In this document: in pieces, positions 2,681 to 20,266 of the stretch
Layout: each line of letters opens with the position of its first letter
How positions within the stretch are numbered: the stretch's first letter is position 1
Assembly (NCBI GenBank): GCA_964016885.1
Contig: OZ024765.1
Coordinates: 21,390,001-21,454,000, forward strand
Reading direction: 5' to 3'
Length of the DNA stretch: 64,000 bases
From: Eledone cirrhosa
Taxonomy: Eukaryota
The notes under the pieces: model-generated
Seen by the model: the letters and a program-made list of their open reading frames with translations, nothing else
What the model was told of the DNA's origin: nothing
The model's database searches: none
Translations under genes and position numbers: made by a program

Positions 2681-3220
2681 TATGTATGTCTATATATATA
2701 TATATATATATATATATATATATATATATATATATGTATGTATATGTATGTATATATATATATATATATATATATGTATGTATGTATGTATGTATATATA
2801 TATATGTATATATATATATATATATGTATATATATATATATATATATATATATATGTATGTATGTATATATATATATGTGTGTGTATATATATATATATA
2901 TGTATAACTATCTACATATATGTATATATATATATATACATATAAATATATATATATATATGTATAAATATATACATATATATATATATACATATATATA
3001 TATATATATATTTATACATATATATATATATACATATATATATATATATATTTATACATATATATATATATATATATATATATATATACATATATATATA
3101 TATATTTATATATATATATATTTATACATATATATATTTATACATATATATATATATATATTTTTACATATATATATATATATATATATATATTTATAAA
3201 TATATACATATATATATATA
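2681..3220. repeat. (TA)n microsatellite with TATG and TTTATACA interruptions
   Basis: Direct reading. Confidence 0.95.
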
Positions 3221-3260
3221 CGATATTAACAAATGGAAACTATATTTATAAAACCATATT

Positions 3261-3325
3261 TATTTCATTATACATATTTCAAGGACACCAAGTTAAATTA
3301 TGGTGTGCTTTCATCAGATAAAATA
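3261..3325 (-). ncRNA. Hammerhead ribozyme (family A, inverted arm)
   Basis: Minus strand: tattttat-CTGATGA-aagcacacca taatttaact tggtgtcctt-GAAA-tatgta-TA-atgaaata. Confidence 0.8.
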
Positions 3326-3562
3326 TAATATAGATCAGTTTTATAAATAAATAAATATTGATATACCCTTAAAAAATGCAACCATTTACTGTTGGAAGCT
3401 CCCGGATAGTGGAGTTGAAGCTTAATTATATTATTAATAATATAATTATATATAATAATATAATTAAGCTTCAACTCCACTATCCGGGAGCTTCCAACAG
3501 TAATGGTTGCATTTTTTAAGGGTATGTCAATATTTATTTATTTATAAAACTGATCTATATTA

Positions 3563-3627
3563 TATTTTATCTGATGAAAGCACACCATAATTTAACTTGG
3601 TATCCTTGAAATATGTATAATGAAATA
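3563..3627 (+). ncRNA. Hammerhead ribozyme (family A)
   Basis: tattttat-CTGATGA-aagcacacca..tggtatcctt-GAAA-tatgta-TA-atgaaata; 8-bp stem I with one G-U pair. Confidence 0.8.
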
Positions 3628-4143
3628 AATATGGTTTTATATATATAGTTTCCATTTGTTAATAACGTATTTTTACTCCAAATATTTGTTGAGTGCTTTA
3701 TATCACTTATAAAAATATCTGCTTGTATCCCAACAATTTAAATAGAACTTTTACATACATATATATATATATATTTATACATATATATATATATATATAT
3801 TTATACATATATATATATATATATATTTATACATATATATATATATATATATATATATATATATATATATATATATATATATTTATACATATATATATAT
3901 ATTTATACATATATATATATATTTATACATATATATATATATATATTTATACATACATATATATATATATATTTATACATATATATATATATATTTATAC
4001 ATATATATATATATATTTATACATATATATATATATATTTATACATATATATATATATATATATTTATACATATATATATATATATATATTTATACATAT
4101 ATATATATATATATATATATATATATATATATATATATATATA

Positions 4144-4996
4144 TAGAAAGATTTGAATGGATACAGTTTAGTTGAAAGGAATTTATTGACACGTGTTTCT
4201 ATAACAGTTACATAACCTAAAACAGCTGCTATCTACAAACTTTTAGTTATGCAGACATTCAATATTTCAATGTTATTATTTACTGTCATTTCATCAGAAT
4301 AATATTACTGAGGACCTATTTAGTTTTTATAGAGAATATTAGGAGGGAGGGGTGAAGTTGTTAGAAGAATAGTTGAAGGAGTGGTTTTTCGATAGCAGTG
4401 AGAATTCTTGGTGGCAGTGAGTAATTAGATTCCCATCTGTTGTTTTGACATTTTTTATAGAATATATTATTGGTTATTTTTCTAAATCTATAGAAGGATT
4501 AGAGATAGTAAAGATATGCGTGGTTGGTTTTGTGTTTGCACTTAATTAACATTCAGACTTAAATTTTTCTTTGAAGTGTACGTATCCTTTCACCCACGCA
4601 TTCACAAACAAATATATTTGCACACCTCTACAAAATACATATACTCACAATTCACATATTCTTCTAACAACTTCACCCCTCCCTCCTAATATTCTCTATA
4701 AAAACTAAATAGGTCCTCAGTTATATTATTCTGATGAAATGACAGTAAATAATAACATTGAAATATTGAATGTCTGCATAACTAAAAGTTTGTAGATAGC
4801 AGCTGTTTTAGGTTATGTAACTGTTATAGAAACACGTGTCAATAAATTCCTTTCAACTAAACTGTATCCATTCAAATCTTTCTATTTTTCTCCGGATTAC
4901 TTTTGGAACTACAACTGGAACCGTCGAGCAAACTCTACGTGAGCTGATAATCTACTGTGTGTAATATTTATATTACAACACAACGGAAAATACTGT
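4144..4996 (+). mobile_element. Fold-back element family B
   Basis: Arms about 4144-4373 and 4657-4885 are reverse complements; spacer 4374-4656; tail 4886-4996; (TA)n on both sides. Confidence 0.85.
4727..4772 (+). ncRNA. Atypical hammerhead-like motif (family B; mirror copy 4256-4301 on minus)
   Basis: tatt-CTGATGA-aatg..catt-GAAA-tat-TG-aatg. Core and stems present but G sits at the cleavage position. Confidence 0.5.
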
Positions 4997-5472
4997 ATAT
5001 ATATATATATATATATATATATATATATATATATATATATATATATATATATATATGTATAAATATATACATATATATATATATATATGTGTATAAACAT
5101 ATACATATATATATATTTATACATATATATATATATATATATATATATATATATATATGTATAAATATATACATATATATATATATATATGTGTATAAAC
5201 ATATACATATATATATATTTATACATATATATATATATATATATATATATATATATATATATATGTATAAATATATACATATATATATTTATACATATAT
5301 ATATATATATATATATATATATATATATATATATATATATATATATATGTAGGAGGTGAGTTTTATTGTAGTACAATAAAGCAATGCAGATATCGGATAA
5401 GAAGCACTCTACAGTTTGTAGGACTGGAGTATACATAATATAAGATCAAAAGATGGTTAAAGGAGTTCCATG

Positions 5473-16949: not shown

Positions 16950-18725
16950 GATTGTGTGTGTATATATGATTGTACATACATATGTATGTATATATATGTA
17001 TATATATGCATTATATATGTATGTGTATGTGAATGTGTTGTATGTATATGTGTATGTATGTGTTTATATGTGTATGTATGTGTATGCTTGTATATATAGG
17101 AATATATATATGTGTATATATGTATGTATATATATACGCGTGTATGTATGTATGTGTGTGTATGTGTGTTGTGTGTATATATATGTATGTCTCTCTATTT
17201 ATATGTTTATCTTCGTATCTATGTGATATATGTGTGTGTGTGCGCACGTATGCATATGTATGTGTTTGTGTGTGTTTGTATGTGTGTGTGTATATATGTG
17301 TATGTGCGCACACACGCATACACATATATATATATATATATATGTGAGTGTGTATGTGTGTCTGTGTGTGTGTGTATGTGTATATGTATATATATATATA
17401 TATGTATATGTATATATATATATAGATATATGTATATATATATATATATAGGTGTCTATGTGTGAATATATGTCTTTATTCGTATGTGTGTATTTATGTA
17501 TGTATATATTTATGTGTATGTATGTATGTGTATGTATGTATGTATATATATATATATATATATATATGTATATGTATATATATATATGTATATTATTATT
17601 TATTATTATAATATAACTTATGTGTATATGTGTATAAGTGAGGTTGTGTATGTATATATAATATGTGTATATATAAGAGTAATAAAATATATATATATAT
17701 ATATATGTGTGCATGTCTGTTTTTTATGTGTGTGTATATATATATATATATGTATATATATATATATATATATGTGCGTGTGTGTATATAGATATATATA
17801 TATATACATACATGTGGGTGTTTGTATGTGTATTTATGGTGGTATGTGTGTGTGGATATATATGTTTATATATATATATATATATATATATGTATGAGTC
17901 TATGTGTGTGTATATATATATATATATATATATATATATATATATATATGTATGTGTATATGTGTGTGTGTGTATATATATATATATATATGTGTATGTA
18001 TGTGTGTATATATATATATCTCTATTAATGCGTGTGTGTATGTATATACATATGCCTTTTTATTATTATTTTTTATTATTATTTTTATTTGTATGTCTGA
18101 GTTTGGTTAGGTTGTATTATTTTTTATGTATATACACATATATGGAAGCGTATGTATTTATATATATGAGTATAAGTAGGTGCATATGTATGTATGATTA
18201 TATATCTAATTCTATGTATGAAGGTACATCTATATATATATATATATACGTGTGTATGTAAGTTGTGTGTGTATGTATCTATATGTCTATGTGAGTGTAT
18301 ATATATATATATATATATATATATATATATATATATATATGTATATCGATGTGCGTATATGTATGTACATGTATGTACATGTATGTGTGTATGTATGTGT
18401 ATGTATATTTAGATGTATGTGTATGTATATGTATATGTATGTATATATATATATATATATATATATATATATGTGTGTGTGTGTATATATATATATATGG
18501 ATGTATATCTTTATTATCTATTTTTTATATATATGTGTATGTGTGTATGTGTTGCGCGTGTGTGTGTGTATATATATATCTTTTATATGTGTATGTGTAT
18601 GTTCGTGTAAGTGTATGTGTGTGTATGACTGTATATGTATGTGTGTATGTGTATATGCGTAAATATCTCTATGTGCGTGTATATGTATGTATGTGTGTGT
18701 ATATATATCTGTATGTGTATGTATA
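16950..18725. repeat. Degenerate (TG/TA)n microsatellite inside the putative PLE 3' region
   Basis: Direct reading. Confidence 0.85.
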
Positions 18726-19299
18726 TTATATTATTATATTTTATTGTTTTATTTTTTTATTTTTCTTAATTTATAGATACATTTATATTAGGCAGTCTGC
18801 TCAGACAATTGAATACTGACCCCTCCCCCCCCTCCCACCTAATTTCTGTATCTTGATCTTGAAATGTGTGTGCCAGTGTTTTATGTGAGTGATTTAATTT
18901 CTATGTGCTTATGATTTTATATCCACATATATAAATGTGAGTGGGGGAGTGTGTGTGTTTGTATGTTCGTGGTTATGTGTATATTTATGCATATACGCGC
19001 ATGTATCTGTGATTATACTGATATGTGTGAGTATGAAAAAATATATTTATATGCTTGACTCCATAAGTATCAATACGCATCTTATCAGCGCATTAAGCTT
19101 ACAGAGATATTAACCTTGAAATTTTGTGTTTGCATCCATCTTTTTAGTATGCGTATACAAATTATACACACATTTTTGTAAAATATGTGTAAGGATTTTA
19201 CATGTATATACACACACCGAACTGCTTTTAACCCTTTGTGTTTTCATTGGTCAATTTTGAACTGATATTTTGAATTGTTGTTATTATCAATAAATATAC

Positions 19300-19454
19300 T
19301 TCATTATTTCTGAAGACGGCGTATATATGTGTTAGGTATGTATATTTAATCTTGATAATTTGTATAATTTTGTATAATTTTGTACATAGATCTGTTGAAT
19401 ATGCATACCAATTATAACACATATATGCCCTAGAAACGATCGTTAAATAATGAA
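19300..19454 (+). ncRNA. Hammerhead ribozyme with greatly extended stem II
   Basis: ttcattattt-CTGAAGA-[c ggc gt atatatgtgtta ggtatg ... catacc aatta taacacatatat gcc cta]-GAAA-cgatcg-TT-aaataatgaa; perfect 10-bp stem I, palindromic A-CGATCG-T. Confidence 0.83.
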
Positions 19455-19610
19455 TTTTTTTGTTTAATATAAGGAATTGTTTATTCATTATTTGTTTAAT
19501 ATTTTATATTTATACATATATATATATGTATATATTTATACATATATATATATATATATATATATATATATATACATATATATACATATATATATATATA
19601 TACATATATA

Positions 19611-19745
19611 TCATCATCATCATCATCATCATCACCGTTTTACGTCCGTTCTTCCACGCTAGCATGGGTTAGACGGGTTGTCCTGTTGTGGGCAGTGTCT
19701 GGTCGGCTGACCATGCCTTGCTCATACAGGAACTGATCTGGCTTA
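19611..19745 (-). mobile_element. RTE-type 3'-end fragment with (ATG)n tail
   Basis: Matches about 40708-40840. Confidence 0.85.
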
Positions 19746-19990
19746 TATATATATATATATATCTATATATATATATATATATATATAGATCTGGCTTATA
19801 TATATATATATATATATATATATACATATATATATATATATATACATATATATATATATATATATATATATATATATATATACATATATATACATATATA
19901 TACATATATATATATAAATACATACATATATATATACATATATATATATATTTATACATATATATATATATATATATATATATATATATA

Positions 19991-20266
19991 ATATAAGATC
20001 AAAAGATGGTTAAAGGAGTTCAATATATTTTATTATGCGCATTTCAAAAACAAACATCATCAAACAATAATATTTGTGTTTTCATCAGATAAAACAGGAG
20101 AACATGATATGAAGGCTAAAAAAACACTTGTTGATAGTGCAGTTTTAAATCAACATATCATGCATACTCCAGTATATTATGCATACTCCAGTCCCACAAA
20201 CTGTAGAGTGCTTCTTATCCGATATCTGCATTGCTTTATTGTACTACAATAAAACTCACCTCCTAC
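19991..20266. mobile_element. Family C copy 2 (hammerhead arm on minus, tail on plus)
   Basis: 19991-20154 matches about 5437-5600; 20180-20266 is the reverse complement of 5348-5436; hammerhead at 20026-20096 on minus. Confidence 0.85.

Follow-up and report, generated by a model that had tools for sequence, protein, structure and literature searches.

Head-to-head element ends within (TA)n arrays

The window, a stretch of 64,000 nt from contig OZ024765.1 of Eledone cirrhosa, holds two open reading frames (ORFs) with Penelope-like element (PLE) motifs and seven insertions (A1, A2, B, C1, C2, D, and E), which on sequence grounds are 5'-truncated, hammerhead-bearing PLE ends arranged head-to-head within (TA)n (Table 1). 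Both ORFs agree with the Hydra clade in their motif set and in their (TA)n target, an agreement of motifs rather than a phylogenetic placement. Neither of the Pfam matches, to GIY-YIG (E 7e-4) or to RVT_1 (E 4e-4), reaches its cut-off, and two of the four neighbouring-ORF proteins have no match. A hammerhead-like motif found by eye near 19311 has the sense of the longer ORF, and the hammerhead core at 6480 lies on the same strand as the shorter ORF fragment, which fixes the direction in which the arms are read. Families A-E appear to lack a firm ORF partner: the best tblastn match of the B spacer is the C-terminus of a neighbouring ORF, which would link this family only weakly, and tblastn searches for ORF remnants in A2 and E gave no match.

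Table 1. Insertions, tails, and PLE ORFs with their positions in the window
Feature	Position	Strand	Remarks
A1 tail-less arm	3221..3437	-	hammerhead core 3317; stop 3221 against (TA)n
A1 tailed arm, portion common to inverted arm	3454..3667	+	hammerhead core 3571
A1 tail	3668..3751	+	84 nt; bulged hairpin 3674-3695
B tail-less copy	4146..4650	-	core 4297; stop 4146
B spacer	4378-4650	-	weak resemblance to decayed GIY-YIG ORF C-terminus (tblastn E 0.17)
B tailed arm, common portion	4651..4882	+	core 4731
B tail	4883..4995	+	113 nt
C1 tail	5349..5437	-	89 nt (measured from last unambiguous base); bulged hairpin
C1 tailed arm, common portion	5438..5598	-	core 5535
C1 tail-less arm	5599..5761	+	core 5664; near-perfect palindrome, 2-nt centre; stop 5761
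D tail-less copy	5829..5986	-	begins within hammerhead core; stop 5829
D head-to-head joint			arms overlap 4 nt, TCAT
D tailed arm, common portion	5983..6069	+	
D tail	6070..6116	+	47 nt; terminates in possible ORF start
PLE GIY-YIG C-terminal fragment (putative)	7702..8157	-	CxCX5C, CxxC, CxH; hammerhead core 6480 on same strand
A2 tail	8441..8527	-	87 nt
A2 tailed arm, common portion	8528..8647	-	core 8624
A2 tail-less copy	8648..9512	+	stop 9512; 9325-9512 homologous to A1
A2 probable additional 3' UTR	8648-9324	+	
E tail-less copy	9935..10500	-	clean hammerhead, core 10191; stop 9935; continues past long-arm end site; partial tandem, 469-nt period, 98/98 nt repeated
E tailed arm, common portion	10501..10750	+	begins at hammerhead stem II
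E tail	10751..10820	+	70 nt; 13-bp hairpin; TAT (3-nt) overlap with flank at end
5'-truncated PLE ORF (putative RT and GIY-YIG)	13541..15658	+	Hydra-clade motifs DKT, CxCX5C, CxxC, CxH
C2 tail-less arm	19991..20154	-	core 20088; stop 19991
C2 tail alone	20155..20266	+	begins at short site; 19-nt tandem duplication
H (sixth family) tailed copy	22223-22358		

Pairwise alignment of the arms reveals an inverted 5'-truncated copy, a head-to-head joint, and a 3' extension (tail) on a single end in all seven insertions. The initial annotation had described this joining of two arms, tails of approximately 45-110 nt, and the positions at which the inverted arms of A-E stop; all three descriptions were borne out, with tails of 47-113 nt and with last unambiguous bases at the stops given in Table 1. 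Each arm carries sequence that is absent from the other in A2, D, and E, which therefore require copying to have occurred twice. An assembly artefact was considered and rejected: the arms differ at 0-2.5% of sites, and the junctions are present in raw reads.

The hammerhead cores point outward in A, B, C, D, and E. A type I core with its stems is recognised by motif in the terminal repeat of A, B, C, and E, for which cleavage is predicted; stem I of B is imperfect, and the core of D is truncated. In E, stems I and II fold, and the match to Rfam HH9 reaches 31.8 bits, under the gathering score of 52. The Rfam scan as a whole gave 222 matches, mostly microRNA models on hairpins or TA runs, with one hammerhead among the 150 matches listed. 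The 5' ends of the arms do not cluster at the hammerhead edge: according to positions read by hand, eight lie between 23 and 309 nt upstream of the core, and two lie inside the ribozyme.

The two arms overlap by 88-250 nt in six of the seven insertions; C2 is the exception, having no overlapping long arm but the tail alone. The arm that extends further 5' is the tail-less one in all four clear cases (A2, C2, D, and E) and, when the weak difference in B is included, in five of five (one-sided p 0.06-0.03, for a pattern spotted post hoc). In A1 and C1, the arms deviate from symmetry by no more than 2-3 nt and form near-perfect palindromes, with 16-nt and 2-nt centres, respectively, and arms that are 97-99% identical. 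Such palindromes would be expected from fold-back self-priming, in which one cDNA turns at its 3' end, copies back, and uses TA microhomology to join the second target end short of the tail, and palindromic junctions are interpreted as self-priming in the available text of PMC3846280. Nonetheless, this route appears improbable: the tailed arm should then extend further 5', whereas A2, C2, D, E, and, weakly, B have the opposite asymmetry, and it offers no reason for a single fixed stop while longer TA runs are passed over.

It was also proposed that one arm had been primed at the RNA's 3' end. This is not supported, because the tail-less copy of E continues through the long-arm end into further element sequence, and the long-arm end of E is thus internal, in agreement with the two internal starts found in vitro for another PLE (PMC11167929).

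The short-arm stop and its reuse

The inverted arm was said to stop where the element resembles the flank, which holds in part. The overlap between the element and (TA)n at the stop is above chance and comprises 3-5 nt in four of the five families (TAT, 3 nt, in A1, B, and C; TATAT, 5 nt, in A2; ATAT, 4 nt, in D), but only 1 nt (T) in E. Against random breakpoints in the same arms, p is 0.0008 (about 0.001) for an overlap of at least 3 nt in four of five families and 0.004-0.02 for the summed overlap, as calculated for five families after the data had been seen; when family H, with an overlap of 1 nt, is added, the values are 0.003 and 0.008-0.03, respectively. Similarly, both family A copies were said to end at ttaatatcg-TATAT, and their stops indeed agree, but the long arm of A1 itself reads TAT/TTT at this site.

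Given the 1-nt overlaps of E and H, the sparing use of longer TA runs nearby, and the equally good fit of an ATT motif to the sites, it appears that TA microhomology may help without setting the position of the stop. Its role as the determinant of the stop, as originally suggested, is not established, since the TA runs located 25 nt upstream and 30 nt downstream of the family A stop are barely used. The ATT motif occurs within -4 to +6 of the stop in five of seven arms (A1, B, C1, D, and E), against a background of 0.14-0.48 and in a window picked post hoc; it is absent near the stop in A2 and H. This motif bears on the possibility that both arms were copied with a tail and that GIY-YIG then cut the new pLTR at a TA/ATT-like site, removing one tail before the flank was joined, in which case the TA-like sequence would be a cut site and not a primer-binding site. 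One PLE endonuclease is reported to cut both strands of its element's pLTR at ATT (PMC11167929), and the motif lies near the stop even in E, without microhomology. However, such trimming is unlikely to have shaped these insertions: ATT is missing at A2 and H, starts in vitro already match the tail ends with no trimming (PMC11167929), and both the tailed piece of C2, which begins at the short site, and the 5'-longer tail-less arm are left unexplained.

Reuse of the stop was followed in reads and contigs placed on the family A arm (3459-3756), A being the one family of A-E covered, and the counts refer to loose ends among those listed, with opposite-strand joints excluded. In the raw reads of another sample (X22), in which read counts do not equal loci because RAD reads, with 14,160 loose ends before 3591, pile up at a cut site, 5,860 loose ends lie at 3660, with a consensus that passes from the element into TA at a junction equivalent to 3667, and 1,565 lie at 3664. 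Depth across 3649-3668 falls by 52% and 74% in the two mate directions, compared with 3.7%/0.9% at the 10-nt TA run at 3638-3647 and 3.1%/2.4% at TATAT 3699-3703. Among the contigs of X1, possibly the window's own sample, 23 end at 3670 and 67 at 3664 (mixed consensus), and the identical stop was found in two contigs under a second organism label (X4). Family A is abundant, with 5,778 contigs placed on one arm in a single run, and its short stop is one dominant site that is reused across many copies. The idea of a fixed short-arm site downstream of the ribozyme is thereby upheld by its reuse in independent copies (A1/A2 and the family A junctions of X22, X1, and X4).

It should be noted that copies whose tails have diverged may have been clipped (1,055 reads at 3657) and may account for part of the fall in depth at this stop. 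When the junction motif of family A was sought in metagenome contigs, all 13 loci proved to be chance 20-22-mers with no TA arrays and were rejected; viral contigs contained 0 loci.

The arms of A1 and A2 differ by 2.5% and 1.7% within the insertion and by 9.2-10% between insertions, and their layouts differ; judging by this divergence, they are independent insertions. C1 and C2, with 0.6% divergence within C1 and 3.7-4.3% between the two, have a common 5' boundary that includes the 2-nt centre of C1 and may not be independent. Thus, the claim that separate, diverged insertions have common breakpoints stands for the A pair and is less clear for the C pair. The common boundary of C1 and C2, as well as the TA overlap above chance, would also fit a DNA rearrangement after insertion, in which unstable (TA)n would undergo replication template switching or be duplicated locally and inverted copies would start at TA-like spots in the resident element. 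Local duplication is indeed present in the window: family H contributes four copies, 97.6-100% identical, of an 82-nt unit together with the adjoining microsatellite, and the inverted pair at 40504-40616 consists of copies of an RTE 3' end. However, these duplications are centred inside the TA array, whereas A-E are centred at 5' truncation points. Moreover, the best TA runs of family A are unused, the approximately 10% diverged A1 and A2 have the same stop, which recurs under the second organism label, and the same layout has been published for PLEs of other animals, all of which make a rearrangement highly improbable.

A possible route of insertion

It is rather probable that the insertions were made by a GIY-YIG double-strand cut, reverse transcription from two fixed internal starts, and joining of the cDNAs. 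The endonuclease of the element would cut both strands of a (TA)n array, and each cut 3' end would prime reverse transcription on the RNA from one or the other of two fixed internal positions, such that the tail would correspond to the stretch lying between the two start sites; the two incomplete cDNAs would then likely be joined at their growing ends. Cutting and extension on both strands, like the pair of internal starts on either side of the tail, are drawn from in vitro work on another PLE (PMC11167929), whose route the events described here would have followed. If two enzymes worked on one RNA, the trailing enzyme would leave the tailed arm 5'-shorter, with which the 5'-longer tail-less arm agrees. 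The tailed piece of C2, which starts at the short site, was counted in favour of two internal starts.

Protein binding in the tail region, possibly at hairpins, would probably fix the start position, and a TA-like anchor of 3-5 nt would assist where present. Because the published PLE start proceeds without homology to the cut DNA (PMC11167929), the TA anchor lies outside the published mechanism. A bulged hairpin follows the stop in the tails of A, B, and C, 5-9 nt downstream of the proposed anchor, as identified by a motif scan (13 matches in 49.3 kb, six within A/B/C tails), the tails being poorly aligned by MAFFT. It is weak, at -2.3 kcal/mol in A and -5.0 in C, and other folds of lower energy exist in B; the hairpin is absent from the D, E, and H tails, and whole family A tails fold no better than shuffles. 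The tails of D and its relative D2 both end in a possible ORF start, an ending not seen in A, B, C, or E.

As a tentative and rather doubtful refinement, the start might resemble a telomerase-like register, in which a UA anchor of 3-5 nt would pair with the cut microsatellite end and be held by the hairpin 5-9 nt downstream, while an enzyme dimer would copy one RNA in tandem with the tailed cDNA trailing. If true, a single mechanism would account for the tail and the inverted repeat as well as for insertion into microsatellites, and it would differ from the homology-free start of PAc (Poseidon of Anolis carolinensis).

Comparison with known elements

In L1 twin priming, as reportedly described by Ostertag and Kazazian in 2001, one start lies at the poly(A) and the other at a variable internal site, and the pieces mostly do not overlap. 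The insertions in the window are similar in that both target ends would prime on the RNA and the cDNAs would be joined 5' to 5', and C2 is an exact match; they differ in that both sites appear internal and fixed and the arms overlap in six of seven. Thus, twin priming in the L1 sense, as initially invoked, fits the geometry of one insertion in seven. Likewise, instead of a variable internal site chosen by complementarity, family A has one dominant site, and its longer TA runs lose 1-4% of depth.

The inverted pLTR with a tail, together with its leading explanation, has already been published for PLEs. As far as the available text of PMC3846280 and PMC8557442 extends, EN+ PLEs have an inverted pLTR with a one-sided tail of 30-40 nt (31 nt in a rotifer element) and resemble the present insertions in the head-to-head 5'-truncated copy, single tail, pLTR hammerhead, palindromic joints, and (TA)n. 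In comparison, the tails described here are longer, the insertions are mostly stumps without an ORF, and the TA overlap above chance at the stop is not taken up in those portions of the two accounts. The small additions made here are therefore tails exceeding the published 30-40 nt, a tail-less arm that extends further 5' in every asymmetric case, and the bulged hairpin after the stop in A, B, and C. The finding mainly extends the set of examples of a published PLE structure, and its worth is that of a natural test set. For example, because family A is both abundant and variable at the stop, a tally of copies across the genome could tell priming apart from trimming by the endonuclease, and models with one RNA from those with two, with no need for new experiments. 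In the available text of PMC8557442, the origin of tandem and inverted PLE structures and of the microsatellite bias are named as open questions.

Family E resembles non-LTR retrozymes, as far as these are described in the accessible part of bioRxiv 10.64898/2026.07.22.740005, in that its hammerhead unit is non-coding and has a period of 469 nt, but it comprises only about 1.2 units. The ORFs at 13541-15658 and 7702-8157 are like the Hydra clade, as covered by the available text of PMC8557442, in motifs, hammerheads, and (TA)n insertion, whereas the link of A-E to this clade is weak and concerns B alone. For PAc, internal initiation at two adjacent sites that match the genomic tail ends, as well as extension of the top strand and the bottom strand, was observed in vitro, with no homology between the RNA start and the cut DNA (PMC11167929). 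The insertions in the window are similar to PAc in that the tail lies between two fixed, apparently internal ends downstream of the hammerhead, PAc having a stem-loop there, and in their AT-rich targets. They differ from it in that the neighbouring ORFs carry Hydra-clade and Neptune-like rather than Poseidon motifs and in that four of the five families overlap with (TA)n by 3-5 nt at the stop, whereas the start of PAc is homology-free.

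Inverted pLTR pairs in (TA)n arrays

The window is AT-rich animal DNA, possibly of cephalopod type, in which retroelement fragments lie between (TA)n arrays. When it was compared with itself with TA runs masked, the families proposed in the initial annotation reappeared as inverted pairs, and pairwise alignment bore out every stop (the end of a tail-less arm that abuts the flank) reported there (table). Four of the families (A, B, C, and E) contain hammerhead cores (CUGANGA, stem II, GAAA), which read away from the middle of each insertion; the core of D is severed at the head-to-head joint. 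In A, C, and E, one can see a short, palindromic helix III of the kind that PMC4209133 describes for type I hammerheads of metazoans, and stem I of B is not clean.

The ORFs neighbouring the arms are Penelope-like elements (PLEs). The motifs listed for the (TA)n-targeting Hydra clade in PMC8557442 occur at 13541–15658 and 7702–8157, a CX4CxxC linker lies at 20379–21317, and Pfam matches in two of the four neighbouring proteins, both under cut-off, lend weak support to this identity. In the element at 7702–8157, the hammerhead and the ORF share one strand; therefore, the arms, which read outward, meet the flanks with their 3' ends. An ORF could be linked to family B only, and weakly (E-value 0.17). 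The identity of the arms as inverted pLTRs (the hammerhead-bearing ends of PLEs) with tails, i.e., one-sided 3' extensions, is far more secure than any account of how they formed, and the feature in A to E is real and reproducible: these families are new, but the tail signature is one already known from PLEs.

Insertions and other repeats in the window (nt; overlap is that of the stop with the TA flank)
Feature	Position (strand)	Tail	Overlap	Remarks
A1 stop	3221	84	3	
A2 stop	9512	87	5	
B stop	4146	113	3	
C1 stop	5761	89	3 (family C)	
C2 stop	19991		3 (family C)	
D stop	5829	47	4	
E stop	9935	70	1	
E tail-less copy	9935–10500 (-)			Partial tandem; non-coding hammerhead unit of 469-nt period, retrozyme-like
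D2, relative of D	22483–22726			
Ten-codon frame, D / D2	6089–6118 / 22694–22723			Conserved; differences mostly synonymous
D-like 3' end	39900–40078			Stops near short site against TA; adjoins two minus-strand CTGATGA cores and a 52-nt tandem repeat
Family H, tailed copy	22223–22358	110		
Family H, extension-less 82-nt units	11896–11977 (-), 12212–12293, 13208–13289, 21920–22001			Near-identical local duplicates with the same microsatellite; two are part of an inverted repeat of 1.1 kb with its centre at 12094
5'-truncated PLE	13541–15658 (+)			Hydra-clade motifs DKT, CxCX5C, CxxC, CxH; asparagine-rich stretch separates RT from endonuclease
3' region of this PLE	to about 19515			~3.6 kb, microsatellite-rich; hammerhead-like motif with long stem II near 19311
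Neptune-like PLE fragment	20379–21850 (+)			Hammerhead-like motif near 21597
Second Neptune-like copy	30719–32016 (-)			96.7% identity over 767 nt; includes RT region
Repeat family in (TAA)n	25647–28820			75-nt piece occurs as inverted copies; internal 10-nt satellite expansion at 27262–28652
Two RTE-like LINE 3' ends	40504–40616			Face across a short TA array with one variant in common; possibly a DNA-level inverted duplication
Satellite array	49399–60665			58-nt unit, ~190 copies
Satellite array	60890–64000			53-nt unit, ~58 copies

Independence of copies and reuse of the stop

The proposal that separate insertions share breakpoints holds for A1 and A2. Their arms differ by 2.5% and 1.7% internally and by 9.2–10% between copies, and A1 forms a palindrome, A2 an asymmetric pair; because divergence is far lower within than between them and their layouts are unlike, they are separate insertions. 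The same proposal is less secure for C1 and C2, which diverge by 3.7–4.3% (0.6% between C1's own arms) and whose neighbours differ past the TA arrays: both have the same 5' end, the 2-nt centre included, and may therefore share descent. Local duplication does occur in the window, where the unit of a sixth family, H, and its attached microsatellite are present in four copies at 97.6–100% identity; that the head-to-head arms arose by inversion at the DNA level is considered very improbable.

Reuse of the family A stop was tested by aligning four sequence runs on the tailed arm of A1 (3459–3756). In X22 (raw RAD reads from a different sample; 30,090 reads aligned, about 85% of the run covered), the main TA-type loose ends among those listed are at 3660 (5,860 reads) and 3664 (1,565 reads), together 31% of the depth immediately upstream, these being reads and not loci, since most begin at one cut site. 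Clipping begins early because the A1 arm has private variants, and the consensus letters of both ends place the junction at 3667. Depth drops by 52% and 74% across 3649–3668, compared with 3.7% and 0.9% at the 10-nt TA run 3638–3647 and 3.1% and 2.4% at TATAT 3699–3703; a further 1,055 reads at 3657 run on into non-TA sequence. Among the loose ends listed, contigs of X1, which may be the window's own source, give 23 at 3670 and 67 at 3664 (mixed consensus), X4, under another organism label, gives 2, and X6 has no such stop. Most reads end short of the long end (the outer end of the tail). Within these limits of the read data, the stop is a fixed site, reused in family A as initially proposed.

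The attribution of this site to TA-like microhomology may hold in part. Overlap with the TA flank of at least 3 nt in four of five families (p = 0.0008 against breakpoints drawn randomly from the same arms) and the summed overlap (p = 0.004–0.02) exceed chance, weakening to 0.003 and 0.008–0.03 when H (1 nt) is added, in a test of few families picked post hoc with the data already known. Within the same limits of the read data, TA likeness alone does not pick the site, as nearby TA runs in family A are hardly used. TA microhomology at the tail-less end was not found stated in the openly readable PLE literature.

The motif CTC-C...G-NN-GAG, derived from the very sequences on which it was scored, begins 5–9 nt past the stop in A1, A2, B, C1, and C2 and is absent from D, E, and H. 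The inner pairs of this hairpin differ among the three families, and when the segments are folded on their own it is the minimum-energy structure in A (-2.3 kcal/mol) and C (-5.0) and not in B. Among the 40 variant positions listed, six fall at 3681–3690: five are in the loop or bulge and one, at 3681, affects the innermost pair, whereas the remaining stem pairs carry none of the 40. The hairpin is presented as a lead, not a result. An equally good lead, the ATT motif close to the stop in five of seven arms, points to trimming of the tail by the endonuclease, an explanation that we regard as unlikely.

Arm asymmetry, the long end, and a probable mechanism with two internal starts

Several insertions are asymmetric on their 5' sides, and in these it is the tail-less arm that is longer: in A2 (by at least 68 nt, judged by homology to A1), D (where it keeps the hammerhead), E, and C2, and weakly so in B, a rule not found stated in the openly readable PLE literature. 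The arms of A1 and C1 are symmetric, and for these two fold-back of a cDNA is plausible. In A2, D, and E, however, each arm has sequence absent from its partner, and therefore a simple fold-back of one cDNA cannot produce them; as an account of the insertions, fold-back appears improbable.

The initial annotation placed one start at the RNA's 3' end. This fails where it can be tested, because the tail-less copy of E passes through the end point of the tailed arm into more element sequence; the long end of E, which overlaps its flank by TAT, is internal. D and D2 end in ten codons (10 protein letters each), which suggests an ORF start.

Probably, the endonuclease cuts both strands within (TA)n, each 3' end begins to copy the RNA from one of two internal positions, both fixed, and the cDNAs, still truncated, are then linked head to head. 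The tailed piece of C2 starts at the short site, a layout expected if the distal enzyme halted at the start point of the proximal enzyme. The twin priming proposed earlier is close to the published mechanism and the feature was correctly spotted, but the model needs two corrections.

PMC11167929 describes cleavage and extension on both strands, with two internal starts that flank the genomic tail and lack homology to the target. PMC3846280 reports head-to-head repeats, a tail of 31 bp borne by one of the inverted pLTRs, and self-priming, and a retrozyme preprint bears on family E. The PLE tail described in PMC8557442 (an inverted 5'-truncated copy, a one-sided tail of 30–40 bp, and a (TA)n bias) has the same layout as A to E, whereas the tails here measure 47–113 nt.
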